From Patescibacteria group bacterium (GTDB taxonomy: Bacteria; Patescibacteriota; Patescibacteriia; UBA1558; GWA2-36-10): a stretch of 64,000 bases of DNA. The position numbers and the translations under genes were made by a program. This document shows, piece after piece, positions 9,744 to 61,987 of the stretch. Position 1 is the first letter of the stretch; every line of letters starts with the position of its first letter. The notes under the pieces are model-generated. The model was not told the origin of the DNA and did no database searches. It saw only the letters and a program-made list of their open reading frames with translations. The stretch covers positions 513,377 through 577,376 of the forward strand of contig JAHJQF010000001.1 of assembly GCA_018819405.1 (NCBI GenBank), read 5' to 3'.

Positions 9744-10208
9744 ATGGCCGTAATTATCAATTATCCGGTAGTAGAAAAGCCGGCACCTCACTTTGAGGGC
9801 AATGCTGTAGGTAATGCCCTTTGGAATCTGCTACAACTGGAGCAGGAAGGACACATATTGCCGGAGCTGCAGTTCCATCTGCAAGGAGGGAGGGTTTTGA
9901 CCCGCATGAAATTGGTGTCCAGCCAGTGTAAGGTGGATGAATGTACTGGTCATGTCACGGTTGTGGCTCGGGCGGCTACTTCCTGTCACTGCCCCTGCAG
10001 TCTGCAGAGGCTTCACTTCGTCCCGGACAACGGGGTGGCTATCGAACACGATGGTTTGATTGTGGCGATGACAGTGGGCTACCCCAGCTGGGAAGCCTGG
10101 ACAGTCATTGAGAATACTCACCTCAAGATCAGGAAGACATTCAAGCCGGATGGCAGCGTCGAGACCGAGGACCTCAATTCCAAACAGCCCAAGGATAAGG
10201 TAGGCTAG
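9744..10208 (+). CDS. hypothetical protein in a GC-rich island
   Basis: 154-aa ORF of about 55% GC in a genome of about 35% GC. Strong GGAAGGGG ribosome-binding site 7 nt upstream. No recognizable family. A 96-aa antisense ORF at 9831-10121 is probably an artefact of the high GC. Confidence 0.45.
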   Translation: MAVIINYPVVEKPAPHFEGNAVGNALWNLLQLEQEGHILPELQFHLQGGRVLTRMKLVSSQCKVDECTGHVTVVARAATSCHCPCSLQRLHFVPDNGVAIEHDGLIVAMTVGYPSWEAWTVIENTHLKIRKTFKPDGSVETEDLNSKQPKDKVG

Positions 10209-10224
10209 CCTTCAATACTGAGGG

Positions 10225-17398: not shown

Positions 17399-17502
17399 AA
17401 AATATGGCCTTAGCAGTTAGTTTGGATATAAATCATCTGGTCTGACTGCTACGGCTATAATGTAACACGGACGTAGTAAAACTCTAGAATTGGAGGAAAA
17501 TC

Positions 17503-18003
17503 ATGAAGAAGCTCACCATCCTGTTCGCTTTGGTGTTGACTCTGCTTGCTTTGACCACGATCTTGGTCAACAGGCATGAGGGTGGTGTCTACCGACTGGA
17601 AGTTTCCGGGGACAGCATCAGTGATATGGTTCGTCGAGGCAATTATGATTGGACCAACTCCAACATCAATGATGACTACTTCACTGCTGATGCTCCGCAC
17701 GAAGCGAACATCATTATTTTCAAGCACTTCGGCGAGGACATGAGCACGAAGGCCGTGCTCAAAGCTCTGGATGACGACGGCTTACGTCCGGCAACTATGT
17801 CCGAGCTACTCGAGCTTGGCATTTGCTATCCCGAATTGCAGAAGCAGTTTCCTATCGTCGCCCTCGGTTCTATCTCTCAGGATCCGTATGGCGACCGCTC
17901 TGTCGGTTTCCTCTACTCCGTTGATGGTCAGCGCGAGCTCGGCCTGGACTGGATCGACGATGACTGGTACGACCACTTTCGTTTCGCCGCTGTCCGCAAG
18001 TAA
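17503..18003 (+). CDS. secreted hypothetical protein in a GC-rich island
   Basis: About 55% GC. Strong GGAGG ribosome-binding site 8 nt upstream. N-terminal signal peptide MKKLTILFALVLTLLALTT. No recognizable domain. Confidence 0.5.
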   Translation: MKKLTILFALVLTLLALTTILVNRHEGGVYRLEVSGDSISDMVRRGNYDWTNSNINDDYFTADAPHEANIIIFKHFGEDMSTKAVLKALDDDGLRPATMSELLELGICYPELQKQFPIVALGSISQDPYGDRSVGFLYSVDGQRELGLDWIDDDWYDHFRFAAVRK

Positions 18004-34693: not shown

Positions 34694-34708
34694 GGTAAGG
34701 TATGGTCA

Positions 34709-34981
34709 TCAAATCCTCTTGAGAACGAGGTTTTTGATGTCCACCTCAAAGGGGCGGGGGACCAGGGGAACGGCCACCCGCACCATCAGGTCAAAGCCGA
34801 CTACGCAGTTGCTATTCGCTTCGTCGATGATGATGTGCGTGACGGTGGGTACGCTGAGCATGGTGCCTTGGGTACCGACCGGGATCTTGATGTCACCATC
34901 GTTGCCGGGGACAGTATAGTCCTCGACAAAAGTGATCTTCTGTCGCCAGAAGCTGCCGTCAACGGGGATTCTTTTTTCCAA
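34709..34981 (-). CDS. hypothetical 90-aa protein (GC-rich operon, gene 3)
   Basis: TTG start with AAGGAGG 7 nt upstream. About 55% GC. No recognized family. Confidence 0.45.
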   Translation of the reverse strand: MEKRIPVDGSFWRQKITFVEDYTVPGNDGDIKIPVGTQGTMLSVPTVTHIIIDEANSNCVVGFDLMVRVAVPLVPRPFEVDIKNLVLKRI

Positions 34982-34996
34982 GTCTTTCCTCCTTGA

Positions 34997-35182
34997 TTAG
35001 TTGTTCTGGACGCGGATCTTGGTGGCGGGGTTTTGGTCGGCCTTCGAGGTCTGGAGTTGGATATGACGGCACTTGGTGTCGCCGTCTTCGGCGTGGGACT
35101 GGTGCACTTTGCACCACTGTCCTTGAATCAGGCAGGGTTTGGCTTTCAGTGAAGGACTAAAAGCCTGGCAGCTTTGGCACAT
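34997..35182 (-). CDS. Cys-rich 61-aa protein (GC-rich operon, gene 2)
   Basis: MCQSCQAF...C...C...C carries five Cys residues (CxxC plus three more). Abuts gene 1. Confidence 0.4.
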   Translation of the reverse strand: MCQSCQAFSPSLKAKPCLIQGQWCKVHQSHAEDGDTKCRHIQLQTSKADQNPATKIRVQNN

Positions 35183-35183
35183 C

Positions 35184-35645
35184 TCAATCTCCTTGTTCGG
35201 TGTAGTAGTGTTCGGTCGGGTAGTCTGGTAGGGATAACCCTAAAAACATGACTAAACTCATCAGCCCCATGAGAAAAGCGGATAGTACACAGACCCGAGG
35301 CACGGCCAACGAAGATGAATTGACAAAAAGCCAACTGACCCAAGTGACCCCGATGGATACTTTTAGCAGTACAAAGCCATCATTTTGCTGGCCAATAGTG
35401 GCTACGATCAACATTATGCCGGCCAGACTGGGCAGAATAGACAACCAATTGTAGTCTAGGAGCATCAGCGGACCACTGATGCCCAAAAGCACCATGGCCA
35501 GTACTTCGCGCCAGTTGGTCAGCGGACGGGCAAAGGTTAGCCCGACGATGGTCAGGCCCAAGCCGACCACGACAGGCTGGCTGTTGAATAAGGCTATAGC
35601 CAGCATGGTAAAAGCCGACAGGATGGTCAGTAGAACGGATTTCAT
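35184..35645 (-). CDS. integral membrane protein, 4-5 TM (GC-rich operon, gene 1)
   Basis: 153 aa, highly hydrophobic, GC-rich. GGAG-like ribosome-binding site upstream of the ATG at 35645. Confidence 0.5.
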   Translation of the reverse strand: MKSVLLTILSAFTMLAIALFNSQPVVVGLGLTIVGLTFARPLTNWREVLAMVLLGISGPLMLLDYNWLSILPSLAGIMLIVATIGQQNDGFVLLKVSIGVTWVSWLFVNSSSLAVPRVCVLSAFLMGLMSLVMFLGLSLPDYPTEHYYTEQGD

Positions 35646-35870
35646 GGTTTGTCTCCTTGAGTCAGGGTTTTAGCAGATGCGGAGGGTACAGAAGGTGTTG
35701 ATGTCTTCCGGAAAAGTAACCTATGTTTTTACCCCTTATCTTATGCGGATGTAAAATAACTTTAACTAGTATATATAAACTAATTTTGTCTTTTTTGTCA
35801 ATGATGTATTTAGGCCTTGCTTTTTTTGAATTTTTATGTTAAATTAATGTCTGTTTAATTTTAATTCACC

Positions 35871-40545: not shown

Positions 40546-41928
40546 ATGGATATTTATTTATACAACAGTTTACACAAAAAAAAGGAAAAATTTGAGCCAA
40601 TCGCCAAGAAAAAGCTCGGTCTTTATACTTGCGGTCCGACTGTTTATGATTATCCACATATTGGCAACTTGGCAGCCTATGTTATCTGGGACATTTGGAA
40701 GCGCTTATTTATTTCTCAAGGTTACAAGGTAAAACATATTATGAATGTCACTGATGTTGGACATTTGACATCAGATGCCGATGATGGTGAAGACAAGATG
40801 GAAAAAGCTAAGCGTCAGTCAGGCAAATCAGCCTGGCAAATTGCTGATTTTTTCTTCAAGGTTTTTCGCAACAATCTCCACAACCTAAACATCTTTGAGC
40901 CGGACAAATTTTTGCGAGCAACTGAGACTATCAAAGAACAGATTGCCTTTGCCAAAATTTTGGATGAAAAGGGATATTTGTATAAGATTTCAGATGGTAT
41001 GTATTTTGATACTTCCAAGATTAGTGACTACGGAGTATTGGCTAATTTGCAAGACGTAGATTTGCAAGAAGGGGCTAGAGTAGAAAAAAATAATGAAAAG
41101 AAAAATCCGACTGATTTTGCGGTCTGGAAGTTTTCTCCAGAGGATAAAACTCGTGATATGGAATGGGAGTCTCCTTGGGGACTAGGATTTCCAGGTTGGC
41201 ATTTGGAATGTTCGGTCATGAGTCAGATAGAACTAGGAGATACTTTTGATATACACACTGGTGGTATGGATCATCTTACTGTCCATCATCCCAATGAAAT
41301 GGCACAATCGGAAGCAGTGACTGGTAAGTTGCAAGCTAATTATTGGCTACACAATGCTTTTGTAAAATATGAAGGCGGCAAAATTTCCAAATCCAAAGGC
41401 AGCTTTTTTACTCTTGAAGATTTGAAAGCCAAGGGATTCTCGCCAATGTATTTTCGTTATCTTATTTTGCAAAACAATTATCGTACTCCACTCAATTTTT
41501 CTTGGGAATCTTTGCTAGCCGCCAAAAATGGATTATTAAATATTATAAAAGAAATAGCTTATTATCCAAAACCAAAAAAAGCTGACAAGCAGATATTGGA
41601 GGATTTTTATCATTCTTTGTCTGATGATCTCAATACTGCCAAAGGATTGGCTATATTACAAAGTGTGATTGACTCAGATATGGATGATGGCCAGAAGCTG
41701 GCTACTATTTATAAGATGGACGAAGTTTTGGGCTTGTCTTTGGAAAACTTGTCAGCCAAAGCGCTAGATATTCCCGATGACGCTTTGATTATTTTGTCCG
41801 AGCGTCAAAAAGCACGGGAGGAAAAAAATTGGGAGTTATCTGACAAATTGAGAGATAAGTTGTTATTATTGGGTATAGAAGTCAAAGATAGTCCAGAGGG
41901 TCAAAAACCATTATATTTGAATTTATAA
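40546..41928 (+). CDS. cysS: cysteine--tRNA ligase
   Basis: HIGN (HIGH-type) and KISKSKG (KMSKS) motifs. 460 aa. Confidence 0.9.
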   Translation: MDIYLYNSLHKKKEKFEPIAKKKLGLYTCGPTVYDYPHIGNLAAYVIWDIWKRLFISQGYKVKHIMNVTDVGHLTSDADDGEDKMEKAKRQSGKSAWQIADFFFKVFRNNLHNLNIFEPDKFLRATETIKEQIAFAKILDEKGYLYKISDGMYFDTSKISDYGVLANLQDVDLQEGARVEKNNEKKNPTDFAVWKFSPEDKTRDMEWESPWGLGFPGWHLECSVMSQIELGDTFDIHTGGMDHLTVHHPNEMAQSEAVTGKLQANYWLHNAFVKYEGGKISKSKGSFFTLEDLKAKGFSPMYFRYLILQNNYRTPLNFSWESLLAAKNGLLNIIKEIAYYPKPKKADKQILEDFYHSLSDDLNTAKGLAILQSVIDSDMDDGQKLATIYKMDEVLGLSLENLSAKALDIPDDALIILSERQKAREEKNWELSDKLRDKLLLLGIEVKDSPEGQKPLYLNL

Positions 41929-41940
41929 GTATTTTTGTTG

Positions 41941-41968
41941 AGGCAGCCTTTTTAGGCTGTTTTTTTGT
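41941..41968 (+). terminator. rho-independent terminator
   Basis: cagcc ttttt aggctg followed by ttttttt. Confidence 0.7.
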
Positions 41969-41974
41969 TGGGTC

Positions 41975-42004
41975 TTGACAACAGCCAAATATGTGCTATG
42001 ATAA
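41975..42004 (+). promoter_or_regulatory. sigma70-like promoter of the tRNA cluster
   Basis: TTGACA, an 18-bp spacer, then GATAAT (TATGATAAT). Confidence 0.5.
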
Positions 42005-42055
42005 TTTTTACGCTTAATAAAAGGGTATGTTTTTTTGAGAAGTCACCGTATAGGT

Positions 42056-42130
42056 GGGCTGGTAGCTCAGTGTTAGAGCGCCTGTCTGGCAGACAGGAGG
42101 ACAGGGGTTCAAGTCCCCTCCAGTCCACCA
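42056..42130 (+). tRNA. tRNA-Ala (anticodon GGC)
   Basis: Clover-leaf with a G3:U70 pair, anticodon loop CUGGCAG, T-loop GGTTCAAGTCC and an encoded CCA. Confidence 0.85.
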
Positions 42131-42380
42131 CTGTTTCGGGTACCGTGCTCTTTTGGGAGCGAGTCGGCAAGGCTAACTGGCGAGAAGGTCTTGCGCAAAA
42201 AGACTGGGAAAAAGTGGATTCCCCGGTACCCGATGATTTTTCTTGCCTCACAACGAGGTGTCGCTCCTTTGGGAGGATTTTTAGCCGGGGTTTACGAGTC
42301 CCTAGGCTGACAATCGAGGCATTGGGCGCCTCCGACACCTTGTTGAAGCTTTGTACTTTTTTACATAATGCACTTTTGTG
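42131..42380 (+). ncRNA. structured RNA candidate between tRNAs (unknown class)
   Basis: About 50% GC. Long-range helices CGGGTACCG/CGGTACCCG and AGGTGTCG/CGACACCT enclose multiple local hairpins. Co-transcribed with the tRNAs between the promoter at 41975 and the terminator at 42692. No match to tmRNA, SRP or RNase P motifs that I can verify by eye. Confidence 0.3.
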
Positions 42381-42381
42381 C

Positions 42382-42453
42382 CCCCCGTTGGTCCAATTGG
42401 ACAGGACACCTGCCAGTCAGGTAATATAGGTTCAAATCCTATACGGGGTACCA
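42382..42453 (+). tRNA. degenerate tRNA-like element (T-arm + acceptor + CCA, abnormal D/anticodon arms)
   Basis: Good T-arm ATAGG-TTCAAAT-CCTAT and a 3' acceptor ACGGGGT-A-CCA. The D region is the perfect palindrome GTCCAATTGGAC and the anticodon arm folds with a 5-nt loop. Either a tRNA pseudogene or an unusual tRNA. Confidence 0.3.
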
Positions 42454-42464
42454 CAATTTCGGTC

Positions 42465-42540
42465 GCGGGTTTAGCTCAGTTGGCTAGAGCACTTCACTTG
42501 AAATGGAGTCGCACAGGTTCGAATCCTGTAGCCCGCGCCA
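42465..42540 (+). tRNA. tRNA, 76 nt, anticodon loop CUUGAAA (anticodon UGA; isotype uncertain)
   Basis: Perfect clover-leaf (7/4/5/5-bp stems, D-loop AGTTGGCTA, T-loop TTCGAAT, CCA encoded). The anticodon reads UGA (Ser codon UCA) but the variable arm is only 4 nt, so it is not a canonical tRNA-Ser. Confidence 0.6.
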
Positions 42541-42633
42541 CACTATCGTCTGGGGAGACATCAATCGGACAGAGCGCTCCGTTCGTTCGGAAAGCGTTGT
42601 CGGTTCGAGTCTGACAGTGTCCTTCTCAGCGAT

Positions 42634-42692
42634 GGGGAGGGGGTTGAGTCTTGCGCTTGTGGCAAGACAATTCCCCCTCCTTTTTCTTTTTG
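42634..42692 (+). terminator. rho-independent terminator of the tRNA cluster
   Basis: ggggaggggg...ccccctcc with a nested gtcttgc/gcaagac hairpin, followed by tttttctttttg. Confidence 0.7.
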
Positions 42693-42789
42693 TTTAAAAA
42701 ATAAAATCATTGACAAAAACCCTTAAAATTACTATATTAAATTATACGACGGCGCATATTTGCTGACGGCTAAAATTTTTTTTATAAAT

Positions 42790-42861: not shown

Positions 42862-44259
42862 ATGAATTTATCAACATTATTATTACTTTTGGTATATATA
42901 GTAAACGTAGGTCTTTTAGTATATGTTTTGTTTTCCAAAAATAAAAAAAAAGGCTGGCCGTTTTTTTGGATGTTGCTTTTGTTGATTTTATGGCAGAGTA
43001 CAGAATTATTTAGTATTATATATTTTGTTGACAAAGGAGAAACCCTTCTTCTTTTTGCTGTCAGAGCCGGGCTTTTGCCGACTCTTTATCTAGCGCCAGC
43101 TTTTTTGTGGCTGGTTTTTTCTTTGTTTGATAAATGGCAGACTTTCAAACCATGGCGCAAATTTTTGTATTTTCTACCGGCTATTATTATGTCGCCTTTT
43201 GCGTTTACAGATTTTAATACCAGTCAGGTAGTATTTGAGGATGAGAGGATATATTATGTTGGCGGGCCGATTTATTGGTTTTTTGCTGCCTACTTTATCA
43301 TATTGATGAGTTATGGCATGTATTTTTTGATCAAAAACAGAAAACAAGCCAAGGCTATAGTCAGGCGGCAAATAGATTATATTTTTATAGGGACTTTTTT
43401 GACAGCTGCTTGCGGATTGATATTTAACATATTATTGCCAATATTTGGTCTGAACAACTTATATTATCTGGGTGTAAATAGCACTATATTTTTTACAGCT
43501 ATTCTTACTTATGCACTTTTTAGGTATAGATTCTTTGATTTGTATATTTCTTTTTATCGTTTACTGATTGATTTTGTGCGTTTATTTTTTACAGGTTTGA
43601 TCTTTTATATTCTTTATATTTTGCTTTTTGATGTAGCAGATTTGGATTTTTCAGTGACTAGCAATGTCTTGTTGTTTTTGGTTATGATTGCTCTAGTTGG
43701 GCCATTTTTGTTTCGCTTGATAAATAAATTTTTTGTAGCTTATCTGGTCTATCCGGAAAATGACATCAAAAATTCAGAAAACAAAATTGCCGATATTTTG
43801 CGCTCCAGTCGTGATCTGGATGTTTTATTTTCACGTTTGGCTAGAGAGATAAGTAAAATAGTGGACTATCAGGACATTTATTTTTTTCTTTCCAAAAGAA
43901 AAAATGTCGATATGTTTTATCAGGTATTTCCGGTAGGCGAGAGACTGATGAGCAAGACAAATAGTGAGATGCTTTCTTATCTTGCTCGCAAACGAGAAGT
44001 TATAAATAAGGCAGAATTAGAATATATAGGCGCTGAGAAAAGCCTGCTGTCAGAATTGTCCGAAAAGCAAGTAGATCTGGTGTTGCCCATTTTTTATAAT
44101 CGTCAGCTTTTGGGAGCAATACTTATAAATAACAACAATGGTCTGGTATCTATCCAAAAAATACATTTTCTAAAACAGCTAAATAAATATCTAGACATTG
44201 CTATTGGTAGTCTGCTCTTGCATCAACAGGATATGGCGGAAAACAGTCCAAAAGTTTAA
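42862..44259 (+). CDS. 7TM membrane sensor protein (His-kinase-type 7TM N-domain + cytoplasmic domain)
   Basis: 465 aa. The N-terminal multi-TM region is similar to those of 44353, 45048 and the kinase at 51398. The C-terminal soluble domain may be GAF-like. Confidence 0.5.
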   Translation: MNLSTLLLLLVYIVNVGLLVYVLFSKNKKKGWPFFWMLLLLILWQSTELFSIIYFVDKGETLLLFAVRAGLLPTLYLAPAFLWLVFSLFDKWQTFKPWRKFLYFLPAIIMSPFAFTDFNTSQVVFEDERIYYVGGPIYWFFAAYFIILMSYGMYFLIKNRKQAKAIVRRQIDYIFIGTFLTAACGLIFNILLPIFGLNNLYYLGVNSTIFFTAILTYALFRYRFFDLYISFYRLLIDFVRLFFTGLIFYILYILLFDVADLDFSVTSNVLLFLVMIALVGPFLFRLINKFFVAYLVYPENDIKNSENKIADILRSSRDLDVLFSRLAREISKIVDYQDIYFFLSKRKNVDMFYQVFPVGERLMSKTNSEMLSYLARKREVINKAELEYIGAEKSLLSELSEKQVDLVLPIFYNRQLLGAILINNNNGLVSIQKIHFLKQLNKYLDIAIGSLLLHQQDMAENSPKV

Positions 44260-46760: not shown

Positions 46761-47018
46761 ATGAATCATTATGTATATATATTAAAAAGTAAGAAAGATA
46801 ATAACTTCTATGTAGGTTATACTAAAGATTTAAATTTAAGATTTAAGCAACACCAAGAAGCTAAAGTAGAATCAACTAAAAACAGAAGACCATTAAATTT
46901 GATATATTATGAATGTTGTTTAAATCAACAAGATGCTACTAAGAGAGAAAAATATTTAAAAACATATCTTGGTAGATATTATATCAAGAAAAGGCTTAAA
47001 TCTTATTTAACGGGGTAA
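46761..47018 (+). CDS. GIY-YIG nuclease family protein (85 aa)
   Basis: YVYILKS...NFYVGYTKDLNLRFKQH is a GIY-YIG motif. The gene is flanked by CCCCGTTAAAT (46736-46746) and ATTTAACGGGG (47005-47015), and its stop lies in the right repeat. Confidence 0.7.
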   Translation: MNHYVYILKSKKDNNFYVGYTKDLNLRFKQHQEAKVESTKNRRPLNLIYYECCLNQQDATKREKYLKTYLGRYYIKKRLKSYLTG

Positions 47019-60928: not shown

Positions 60929-60975
60929 AGAGTAGAAGCTAGAGACGGCTATAAATATAGCGACGGCTCTAAACA
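60929..60975 (+). promoter_or_regulatory. palindromic operator-like motif, copy 2 (upstream of the NTase-GNAT operon)
   Basis: GCTATAAATATAGC-GACGGCTCTAAACA preceded by the half-site AGAGACGGCT. Same core as 54279-54306. Confidence 0.5.
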
Positions 60976-61033: not shown

Positions 61034-61987
61034 ATGACTCAGCAAACTTTGTGTTGCTACGATTTGATTATGGTCAGGTCGGGCGAAATACTCACAATAA
61101 ATGGTAACTTTGATGGAGAATATTGCCGTGCTACTTTGAGCTTGTTTCCCTCTTCTATGGGGAATAGGCTTATAGACGGCCGTGTATATAAGAAAGCAAC
61201 TTATGAGTTGGGATATAAGATTCCCTACGTCAGGAAGATATTAGATTTACCTGGTCAGCAGCAGTTTTTGGTAGACAGGAACAGCATCGTCAGAGTGTAT
61301 TCTGCAAGGAGAGCTTTTGACTCTTTGTCCTTTCAGGATAAAATTAGGACGCGTTTGTTCATGGACTATCTGGGTCTAGATTACAATTTTCACGGTTTGA
61401 CTGGTAGTAGTGCATCGGGCTGTCGGCTCTCTGACTCTGACTTTGATTGGGTTTTGTATACCAATCAATTATGGTCAGTTAAACAGAGGGTAGTTGATGT
61501 CCCTAGGATGTTGACTTTCGATATGCAACACGCTTATCGAAAGTATCATGTCTTTGAGGTGCTGTCTAAGCAGGACATAGATTTGATTTTTGGCAATAAG
61601 TGGAAGTATCTATGGTTTTGCGGTCTGCACATATCAGTTAATTTTGTTGATATGGCTGTACGCGCTGACCACCTTTGCGATACTGACAATTGCCGAGATC
61701 GTCTTGTTTTGCGAGGTAGGGTAATAGATGGGAAAGGCTCCTATTACTCTCCTTATGTCATTCCATTCGAAAGCGATGGGCAGACGTACCAGATACTCAC
61801 TTGGCTTTATTTGTATAATGGAGCCTTTGCATCTGGTGACCTAATAGAGCTATCAGCTCGGAGAGGATCTTTTGGAGGGCAGGAGTATTTGGTAGTCGAA
61901 AGACCACCAGATTACATTCGTAAGTTGGTCTGCAAGGATGGAGGAGGCTATGTCTCTGATAGACTATATTCAGCTAGTAGTAGCTGA
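61034..61987 (+). CDS. Pol-beta-superfamily nucleotidyltransferase (cGAS/DncV-like arrangement)
   Basis: GLTGSSASGCRLSDSDFDW gives GS-x9-SDSD at residues about 115-133, with the acidic DIDLIF about 60 aa later. Ribosome-binding site GAAAGGAGG. About 42-45% GC. Confidence 0.5.
   Translation: MTQQTLCCYDLIMVRSGEILTINGNFDGEYCRATLSLFPSSMGNRLIDGRVYKKATYELGYKIPYVRKILDLPGQQQFLVDRNSIVRVYSARRAFDSLSFQDKIRTRLFMDYLGLDYNFHGLTGSSASGCRLSDSDFDWVLYTNQLWSVKQRVVDVPRMLTFDMQHAYRKYHVFEVLSKQDIDLIFGNKWKYLWFCGLHISVNFVDMAVRADHLCDTDNCRDRLVLRGRVIDGKGSYYSPYVIPFESDGQTYQILTWLYLYNGAFASGDLIELSARRGSFGGQEYLVVERPPDYIRKLVCKDGGGYVSDRLYSASSS

Follow-up and report, generated by a model that had tools for sequence, protein, structure and literature searches.

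In the 64,000-nt stretch of a Patescibacteria genome analysed here (hereafter the window), an operon of tRNA-shaped RNAs is found at 41975-42692 of the + strand, 3′ of cysS, the gene for cysteinyl-tRNA synthetase (CysRS). We propose that this operon is probably a lineage-specific, fast-evolving set of non-decoding tRNA mimics located 3′ of cysS in Komeilibacteria-like Patescibacteria. By its signals and folding, 41975-42692 is predicted to be one promoter-to-terminator unit that encodes six cloverleaf RNAs on a transcript of ~690 nt, namely, and in this order, a tRNA-Ala(GGC) (unit 1), two four-way-junction RNAs (units 2 and 3), a tRNA body in which the anticodon arm is truncated (unit 4), a tRNA with a UGA loop (unit 5) and a degenerate unit with a T-arm (unit 6). 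Sequence comparison indicates that the locus keeps the features by which processing and acceptor-end enzymes recognise a tRNA (the acceptor stem, both the D and the T arm together with their loops and, as a rule, an NCCA end encoded in the DNA), and that the anticodon arm is abandoned as a decoding device. An earlier note on this DNA had divided the unit into five parts, all of which were found where it had placed them. Among the explanations that it had considered, an unrecognised stable RNA processed like a tRNA came closest: the operon is a chain of tRNA shapes, recurrent and conserved in relatives, for which such processing is predicted.

Related loci keep the tRNA body and vary the anticodon arm

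When the DNA 3′ of cysS in relatives was analysed with ARAGORN, odd tRNAs with 2-nt or 4-nt anticodons, 76-nt 'Leu' and 'Ser' tRNAs and 'SeC' calls were returned. A covariance model, R1, was built from 17 odd tRNAs of relatives and was used to search the window and 45 family loci (numbered here with an L). R1 detected 35 tRNA-shaped genes in the window and in 22 of the 45 related loci, 32 of them outside the window, and every one of the 35 elements lies 3′ of cysS and on the same strand as this gene. In a control set of 100 non-family cysS loci (788 kb) the model matched 10 times, and nine of these ten matches were ordinary tRNAs by ARAGORN (Lys, Thr, Phe, Cys and type-II Ser). A comparison with orthologous tRNA clusters, as the earlier note had proposed, thus uncovered similar tRNA-shaped sets 3′ of cysS in relatives.

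The acceptor, D and T stems of the 35 elements were 97.7% paired, compared with a mean of 66.7% after shuffling, and pairing dropped to 39-52% when the partners were slid by 1-3 columns. Double-sided (compensatory) changes were observed at 15 of the 16 pairs, and 1:72 was unpaired in 9/35 elements. The T-loops read UUCRANY, GG was kept in most D-loops and NCCA was encoded by most of the 35 elements. The units detected by R1 are 49-64% GC, in contrast to 36% for the genome. In the anticodon arm, the canonical loop geometry (a 5-bp stem and a loop of 7 nt with U33 and purine-37) was present in 8 of the 33 non-His elements, and this geometry together with an anticodon that matches the body in two of the 33, the Ala-GGC element of the window and the Lys-CUU element of L089. 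UUCG tetraloops on a 5-6-bp stem were found in L162 and L169:3453 and a CUUG tetraloop in L010:5545; the loop was of 3-6 nt in window unit 4, L004, L090, L165 and L012, and of 8-9 nt in L013, L083 and L009; position 33 was G, C or A in L014, L169:3339, L089:2048 and L100; and inserts of 29-50 nt formed an extra hairpin in the arm in L018, L169:3640, L173 and L008/L009/L168. The orthologues of the window units differ chiefly in the anticodon loop.

As a yardstick of conservation, RNA identity was compared with identity at the fourfold-degenerate third positions of the adjacent cysS, and it was the higher of the two in all pairs compared. The values were 0.91 versus 0.66 for L008 and L009, 0.95 versus 0.62 for L008 and L168, 0.88 versus 0.48 for the tRNA-like and 0.79 versus 0.48 for the four-way-junction RNAs of L010 and L090, 0.82 versus 0.53 for the 'T2 type' (that of unit 5) in the window and L165, and 0.80 versus 0.44 for the 'T1 type' (that of unit 4) in the window and L004. 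The RNAs were also more conserved than their own flanks in L008 versus L009, L008 versus L168 and L010 versus L090. Since the R1-detected units are conserved above fourfold sites and, where these were compared, above their flanks, are GC-rich and have anticodon arms that are rebuilt rather than eroded, they appear to be under selection, and pseudogene decay is unlikely.

Other structures were observed in the related loci. In L089, at about 1500-1690, an imperfect hairpin of ~200 nt with purine-rich and pyrimidine-rich arms (-70.7 kcal/mol) and a promoter of its own lies upstream of the tRNA-like operon. A rod-like, G+C-rich hairpin of ~100 nt precedes a tRNA-like unit in L012 (3335-3432) and L014 (4067-4165); its closing helix is GGCGGCGCC/GGCGCCGCC in L012, with an equivalent in L014, and the L012 copy, which is minihelix-like with a CCA end, terminates in UCCA and is followed by GUUCUU. 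The motif (A)GUUCUU is recurrent directly 3′ of the CCA of many units (L009 6471, L008 5098, L168 5625, L012 3436 and L169 3530) and may be a processing signal. In other lineages of the Candidate Phyla Radiation (CPR), canonical tRNA-Lys(UUU) and tRNA-Thr(UGU) genes lie immediately upstream of cysS (L037 3501-3767; L132/L133 3001-3267), and from such a cysS-linked pair the Lys-like (T1) and Thr-like (T2) mimics could plausibly have evolved. In two scans of viral contigs for exact patterns, one coincidental phage tRNA-Lys(CUU) was the sole match, and no link to phages emerged.

The tRNA-like units of the window

In searches with Rfam 15, both at the gathering cutoff and at E ≤ 10 with permissive filters, tRNA was the sole family that matched the operon. 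The tRNA model (gathering score 29 bits) gave 69.8 bits for unit 1, 64.6 bits for unit 5 and 45.6 bits for unit 4, and no score for units 2, 3 and 6 (dom1, dom2 and tl_e) even at E ≤ 10. ARAGORN, run in intron modes of 0-300 nt, with lowered thresholds and in tmRNA mode, returned units 1 and 5 alone. In the whole 64-kb window, the tRNA-shaped matches were confined to elements of the operon.

Unit 1 (42056-42130, +) is the tRNA-Ala(GGC) with an encoded CCA that the earlier note had described as normal, and the ARAGORN call and the scores (69.8 bits with both Rfam and R1) bear this out, though G18G19 is missing from its D-loop, AGUGUUA. The unit carries G3:U70 and A73, it is the sole window unit whose anticodon matches its acceptor identity, and it shows every feature of a decoding tRNA that was looked for (5-bp stem, 7-nt loop, U33, purine-37 and an identity-consistent anticodon, GGC with G3:U70/A73). 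Its counterpart in L007, by position and sequence, keeps G3:U70/A73 and carries the anticodon UAA.

Unit 4 (tl_c, T1 type; 42382-42453, +) was matched by the Rfam tRNA model at 42382-42450 and by R1 with 64.6 bits, and was missed by ARAGORN, including its intron and low-threshold modes. It has normal D and T arms, A73-CCA and a C1.U72 mismatch, and its anticodon arm is truncated to 4-5 bp with the 5-nt loop CCAGU, which is not the geometry of a decoding tRNA. This element had been described as tRNA-shaped with a 5-nt anticodon loop and a palindromic pseudo-D-arm; the loop and the shape stand, and the pseudo-D-arm is better read as a normal D-arm, GUCC/GGAC, with the loop AAUUGGACA. The orthologous loops are of 6 nt in L004, UUCCA in L165 and a UUCG tetraloop in L162.

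The spacer between units 1 and 4 (42131-42381, 251 nt) folds at -99.7 kcal/mol (z = -4.5; 0/200 shuffles as stable), and the two domains closed by long-range helices that had been seen in it are each predicted to be a four-way junction, on which the minimum free energy and centroid folds agree. Unit 2 (dom1; 42137-42232, +), closed by CGGGUACCG/CGGUACCCG, has -41.1 kcal/mol (z = -3.6; 0/200 shuffles as stable) and was also recovered by a descriptor scan, and unit 3 (dom2; 42254-42342, +), with the 10-bp closing helix CGAGGUGUCG/CGACACCUUG, has -44.4 kcal/mol (z = -5.1). In dom1 the closing helix is acceptor-like and of 9 bp; it is followed by a U8-like linker (a single U) and by a D-arm-like hairpin, GCUC-UUUUGG-GAGC, whose stem, GCUC/GAGC, is a canonical D-stem sequence and whose loop contains GG. 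The layout is common to both domains: dom2 likewise has the single U and a short first hairpin, and in each a purine linker and then a long second arm come next. The third hairpin, of 5 bp, lies directly against the closing helix at its 3′ strand, in the way that a T-arm lies against the acceptor stem. The 13-nt sequence GCTCYTTTGGGAG is common to dom1 and dom2, which are therefore taken as tandem paralogues. We read the four-way-junction type, on these folds, as strongly derived tRNA shapes.

The same four-way-junction layout is predicted in L007, L010, L090 and L162, in RNAs that lie 3′ of a T1-type tRNA-like gene inside RNA operons. The descriptor scan for this shape, which used strict seeds, found 6 four-way junctions and 4 tRNA-likes in 0.72 Mb of family DNA, compared with 16 looser matches in 1.86 Mb of controls that were mostly GC-rich. 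By count the enrichment is modest; it is the location inside RNA operons that counts, and every family match of the scan falls within one. The copies of L010 and L090 can be aligned, with the identities given above, and five four-way-junction RNAs proved too divergent to align with MAFFT/RNAalifold.

Unit 6 (tl_e; 42544-42634, +) is a degenerate tRNA-like element of 91 nt, as judged by folding. It is closed by a long helix and retains a GAGC/anticodon-arm remnant (UCCG-UUCGUU-CGGA) along with the T-arm GUCGG-UUCGAGU-CUGAC. The T-arm-like piece before the terminator that had been noticed earlier, GUCGGUUCGAGUCUGAC (42599-42615), is thus present inside a structured element. Neither R1 nor the Rfam tRNA model detected tl_e. 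Together with the terminator hairpin (42541-42692) the region has z = -5.3, and tl_e occupies the position of the 'GCCC(C)-ended' tRNA-like unit of L165, L004 and L013.

Unit 5 and the meaning of UCA

Unit 5 (tUGA, T2 type; 42465-42540, +) is a 76-nt class-I tRNA body that was detected by R1 as well as by Rfam and labelled 'tRNA-Ser(tga)' by ARAGORN. It has G1-C72, C2-G71, G73 and CCA, the anticodon loop CUUGAAA (42497-42503) and the 4-nt variable loop UCGC. The geometry of the anticodon loop is canonical (5-bp stem, 7 nt, U33 and A37), and the anticodon is inconsistent with the body. The earlier description of this unit as a 76-nt tRNA with a variable arm unlike that of any bacterial tRNA-Ser is borne out by ARAGORN, by Rfam and by comparison with bacterial type-II tRNA-Ser, with which it shares G73 and from which the 4-nt variable loop in 76 nt sets it apart, bacterial seryl-tRNA synthetase requiring a long variable arm. 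Its nearest annotated relatives are the tRNA-Thr(UGU) of T4-like phages, 78-79% identical over the full length; its D and T arms are Thr-like, and CUUGAAA is one base apart from the CUUGUAA of tRNA-Thr. Compared with canonical tRNA-Thr(UGU), the acceptor pairs G1-C72 and C2-G71 and G35 are present, position 36 is A and not U, the discriminator is G73, and the loops of the orthologues differ. In L165 (cysS 75% identical) the orthologue, at 2228-2301, shares the body and the anticodon-stem strand CUUCA with unit 5 and has the 6-nt loop CUUUGA, and in the L015/L094 orthologues the loop AUGCUAU would read as GCU. Because the orthologues conserve no anticodon, unit 5 is not regarded as a serine decoder and its UGA loop appears to be one state of a drifting loop. 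By sequence, then, unit 5 would be a Thr-like body with a drifted anticodon loop, and neither a serine tRNA nor evidence of recoding.

Codon usage was consistent with this. UCA is used at 14.2 per 1000 codons. Across nine genes for which the fetched loci supplied homologues, it occurs on invariant Ser positions of GAPDH (38/38, 39/39, 42/42 and 43/43 homologues) and EF-Ts (16/16), and also on Ser-dominated columns of CysRS. The conserved columns at UCA codons were Ser in 9/15 and Ala in 4/15 cases. The UCA-at-Ala columns (tsf codon 94, pyrH codons 107 and 116, and gap codon 234) compare with 2/47 for the other Ser codons; the excess (Fisher p = 0.026) is uncorrected, comes from few homologues and concerns Ser/Ala-exchangeable positions, and nothing is built on it here. 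The alignments thus indicate that UCA is not reassigned and still means Ser, and the unusual Ser decoder that the earlier note had implied gives way to a Thr-like body whose orthologues have a 6-nt or a GCU loop.

A beta-barrel protein beside the operons of relatives

In about half of the genomes a small, lineage-specific and GC-rich open reading frame (ORF) of 89-204 aa with its own promoter adjoins the operon. It was found in L002/83/163/164, L082, L165, L004, L007, L013, L014/93, L169-172 and L173, and probably at two further loci; its coordinates are 3001-3291 in L169, 1702-2070 in L165, 6039-6308 in L004, 5127-5741 in L083, 5543-5830 in L007, 5054-5344 in L013 and 4400-4717 in L014. No sequence match was obtained in Pfam or the Protein Data Bank. 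By profile search the protein is remotely homologous to ~82-aa 'translation elongation factor-like' CPR proteins, some with PF03144, PF14578 or PF16325; among these it forms a divergent branch, distinguished by an insertion and the motif LPPNN. Its AlphaFold model (mean confidence, pLDDT, 87.8) matches the beta-barrels of eIF5B/IF2, EF-Tu domain II, Pyrococcus abyssi Pbp11 and the C-terminal domain of U32 peptidase, with E about 5e-4 and TM scores of 0.6-0.7. In translation factors, the barrels of EF-Tu domain II and IF2-C2 touch tRNA at its aminoacylated CCA end. Given this contact, a link between the barrel fold and the CCA-ended mimics is plausible, and by analogy the protein may plausibly handle them.

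Alternative explanations

Could unit 5 be active in translation? As a mistranslating or recoding tRNA, Thr-like or otherwise charged, it would place an amino acid other than Ser at UCA, in the manner of allo-tRNAs or tRNAProA-type missense suppressors. The canonical geometry of its loop would allow this. G1-C72 and C2-G71 are acceptor determinants of threonyl-tRNA synthetase (ThrRS) in Escherichia coli; unit 5 has both, and its loop is one base from that of tRNA-Thr. The Ala columns at UCA, at their uncorrected significance, point the same way, as does a 76-nt tRNA with G3:U70/A73 and the anticodon UGA at 443-518 of L112/L113, in another CPR lineage (cysS ~50% identical). On the other side, UCA is a common codon that stands on invariant Ser of GAPDH and EF-Ts, the family conserves no anticodon (the orthologous loops are of 6 nt in L165 and GCU in L015), the ThrRS determinant U36 is lost and, as unit 5 has no G3:U70, the Ala signal has no mechanism in the window genome. 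We therefore consider recoding by unit 5 improbable. The UGA tRNA of L112/L113 has an odd T-loop, UACAAUU, and is followed by its own terminator; mismatches between anticodon and identity may be more widespread in CPR.

The aberrant units might instead have no function, as decaying duplicates of a cysS-linked tRNA-Lys/tRNA-Thr pair that are co-transcribed with a real tRNA-Ala. Such a pair does exist beside cysS in L037, L132 and L133, the units turn over quickly and are present or absent among relatives, and tl_e, missed by both tRNA models, is visibly degenerate. Decay would not leave stems paired as tightly as those of the 35 elements, with compensatory changes, nor RNAs of 50-60% GC in a genome of 36% GC that exceed the fourfold sites in identity by far in every pair compared; what the anticodon arms show is rebuilding, into stable tetraloop hairpins or into elaborate inserts, and not erosion, and a streamlined genome of ~1 Mb has kept the promoters and terminators. 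This explanation seems to us rather unlikely. Scars of mobile elements, that is, tRNA fragments or att sites left by repeated integrase insertion and excision at a tRNA gene, are scarcely credible. tRNA genes are common integration targets, and the window has several foreign-looking GC-rich islands with small ORFs; against this, direct repeats of a tRNA 3′ half are absent, the four T-arms of the operon are all unlike in sequence, the operon is flanked by housekeeping genes whose synteny is conserved, and the neighbours examined included no integrase. The repeats of at least 12 nt in the operon region were those of the dom1/dom2 hairpin and of A/T-rich pieces of the promoter region, with no others. 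The tRNA pseudogenes left by integrase action that the earlier note had listed therefore find no backing, with no att-like repeats, no integrase nearby, chromosomal synteny, intact stems and conservation above fourfold sites. The intron or permuted arrangement that it had also listed fared no better: the intron and tmRNA modes of ARAGORN added nothing, and the Rfam model tmRNA_permuted reached 11.1 bits against a gathering score of 47. The strong and well-defined fold of the spacer could, finally, be that of a known structured RNA class (6S, SRP, Y RNA, ribozyme or riboswitch) inside a tRNA operon. The earlier note had held that its view of the spacer would fall if Rfam identified it as a known RNA, and no Rfam 15 family matched it at E ≤ 10; the best non-tRNA scores are far below gathering (YrlA, 20 bits against 69), and the GCUC...GAGC hairpin 1, the U8-like linker and the third hairpin abutting the closing helix point to an origin from tRNA, so that a known class is very unlikely.

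Several observations weigh against the reading of the operon as a set of non-decoding mimics. Units 1 and 5, with fully canonical anticodon-loop geometry, could still decode. Discriminator bases and acceptor stems vary from unit to unit and so do not point to any one charging enzyme, and G3:U70, present in 4/33 elements, is too rare for a general alanine identity. About half of the related loci have no operon at cysS and its composition varies by genome, which suggests that it is dispensable, or that it moves. The 64-kb window contains no barrel ORF, and about half of the operons have none nearby. For dom1, dom2 and tl_e, which are without an alignable homologue, the support consists of single-sequence thermodynamics and recurring architecture, and the four-way-junction copies of the window are for this reason less well supported than the T-types. 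The least secure part of the operon is tl_e, which taken alone is weak (z = -2.6; 3/200 shuffles as stable).

Proposed mechanism and meaning

If the units are non-decoding mimics, as we favour, they would be transcribed together from a sigma-70-type promoter to the terminator, as the consensus signals suggest, and RNase P at the 5′ ends together with 3′ trimming would then release stable units of ~72-96 nt, as their tRNA shape would predict. Unit 1 may still work as tRNA-Ala. The other units would be stable mimics that read no codons, a view based at the level of the family on the anatomy of the loops and the comparison of orthologues, and they would act via the acceptor stem, the T-arm and the CCA end, either as amino-acid carriers for a non-ribosomal reaction or as decoys or regulators of tRNA-binding or tRNA-cleaving proteins. 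In about half of the related genomes their partner would probably be the adjacent stand-alone EF-Tu-domain-II/IF2-C2-like barrel protein, which the window lacks. An unpaired 1:72 would disfavour EF-Tu in E. coli. The frequent mismatch at 1:72 and the neighbouring barrel protein incline us to think that the 3′ end would be handled in a specialised way. A fuller version, held with considerable doubt, is that of a ribonucleoprotein system composed of rapidly diversifying, anticodon-less tRNA mimics and four-way-junction derivatives with a 9-10-bp acceptor-like helix, whose CCA or aminoacyl ends would be handled by the dedicated barrel protein and not by EF-Tu. The same version joined to a purpose, which would be aminoacyl transfer to the envelope or the titration or decoying of tRNA-targeting enzymes of hosts, phages or competitors, is put forward just as tentatively.

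If the operon is functional, as the conservation of its RNAs indicates, ultra-small symbiotic bacteria with minimal genomes devote promoter-driven space to tRNA look-alikes that are unable to read codons, and a CPR-specific item would be added to the non-translational biology of tRNA. The loci would also form a natural series from a true tRNA through a tetraloop-capped mimic to a four-way-junction derivative, which would show the minimal needs of the processing and acceptor-end machinery. For annotation, genes of this kind are labelled tRNA-Ser, Leu, Cys, Asn, SeC or '???' by ARAGORN, and such labels might give rise to unfounded claims that CPR genomes recode codons or have odd sets of tRNAs.

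Comparison with known systems

A literature search on tRNA-like RNAs or non-canonical tRNAs in CPR/Patescibacteria returned nothing relevant. The nearest precedent is found in Acidobacteria, where polycistrons of irregular tRNAs or inactive allo-tRNA-like RNAs have been described (Mukai et al. 2017, NAR 45:2776, PMC5389517; review PMC7609411), and where it was suggested that some irregular tRNAs are charged yet unused in translation, or are regulatory noncoding RNAs (PMC5389517; PMC7609411). None of the known systems compared is a family match. As in the Acidobacteria polycistrons, one transcript carries several irregular tRNA-shaped genes with anticodons that mismatch the identity of the body. 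The Acidobacteria RNAs are characterised by an acceptor/T branch of 8/4 or 9/3, a long variable arm, G-1 or an additional loop; their anticodon loops are still of 7 nt, and toxin-antitoxin or transposon genes are found in their vicinity, whereas the T-type units of Patescibacteria have a 7/5 branch, short variable loops (4-5 nt) and an anticodon arm that is truncated, tetraloop-capped or expanded, and are chromosomal, by cysS. An allo-tRNA has an acceptor branch of 12 bp, arranged as 8/4 or 9/3, and a long variable arm; the units are not allo-tRNAs by these measures, dom1 and dom2 being 9-10/5 without a variable arm.

The tRNA-Other of Bacillus cereus (Ataide et al. 2005, cited in PMC5389517) is a tRNA-like small RNA that is also not a normal decoder and also has an aminoacylatable acceptor end. 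There is one such gene, whose product is reported to be charged by a complex of LysRS1 and LysRS2, and the likeness to the operon is one of description. The two differ in scale as well, in that we know of no operon of diverse units, four-way-junction derivatives or barrel-protein neighbour for tRNA-Other. YrlA, a Y RNA-like family (Rfam RF02553), also has a tRNA-like module with T-arm, D-arm and acceptor-like stem in which the anticodon arm is replaced by another helix, and is itself without a CCA-ended acceptor; its score in the operon was 20.2 bits against a gathering score of 69, in a match that straddles two units, and Pfam/NCBIfam scans of the neighbouring genes revealed no TROVE domain (rsr). 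A tmRNA, standard or permuted, was not found either (ARAGORN -m returned none; the score of the permuted model is given above), nor were the marks of intron-containing, split or permuted tRNAs or of integrase att remnants. Staphylococci have extra, non-proteinogenic copies of tRNA-Gly for cell-wall cross-bridges, in which elbow and EF-Tu features are weakened and the normal cognate anticodon, needed by the synthetase, is kept. Unit 1, without G18G19, resembles the weakened elbow of these cell-wall tRNAs, which, unlike the mimics, keep their anticodons; the genes examined around the operon yielded no Fem/MurM-type transferase.

Setting of the locus and other features of the window

The RNA unit (41975-42692, +) sits between cysS (40546-41928) and the first of three genes for HisKA_7TM membrane proteins (42862-44259), in the conserved gene order rpsB-tsf-pyrH-PSP1-gap-cysS-[RNAs]-7TM x3-asparaginase. 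The window is 36% GC and the genome ~1 Mb. Pfam recognises the CysRS domains of the cysS product, which is nearest to metagenome-assembled genomes of Candidatus Komeilibacteria/Parcubacteria (61-75% identity); among 5.8 billion proteins the top match is 75% identical. An intrinsic terminator of cysS was found by a terminator scan at 41940-41963 (+), and the RNA unit is therefore marked as a separate transcript. Its sigma-70-type promoter, TTGACA-16-TATGAT with a TG extension (41975-42002, +), agrees with the consensus at 11/12 positions, and TTGACA promoters likewise lie upstream of the tRNA-like operons of relatives. The predicted terminator (42634-42692, +) is a long G+C hairpin, GGGGAGGGGG...CCCCCUCC, with an inner stem, followed by the U-run UUUUUCUUUUU; it was seen in the fold and was not listed by the simple, narrow terminator scan. 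The promoter-to-terminator unit that the earlier note had drawn is thus upheld by consensus match at one end and by folding at the other. The next promoter lies at 42710-42738.

Just 3′ of a -10 box, a direct repeat, GACGGC-N11-12-GACGGC, was observed at 42748-42770 and at 60944-60967, two copies in the window compared with none expected by chance, and it stands ahead of the 7TM (HisKA_7TM) genes and of one further gene (61034-61987). It is also present in most family loci, e.g., L009 (6829/6846), L083 (6765/6782) and L162 (about 5797/5814), with the pair inverted in L100, and it is probably a regulator-binding site. Pairing of the RNA loops with this downstream motif was dropped as a candidate, GCCGUC being present in L089 alone. 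The C-terminus of the 7TM protein was likewise rejected as an aminoacyl-tRNA transferase, the only matches being HisKA_7TM and a weak one to LIC10906. GC-rich islands (55-64% GC) with small ORFs lie at 9745-10210, 17494-18002 and 34700-35650 of the window; they gave no Rfam match and may be foreign or specialised cassettes. At 46761-47018, among conserved neighbours, an 85-aa ORF has weak similarity to GIY-YIG/group I intron endonucleases (TIGR01453, E = 3e-5, short of the cutoff).

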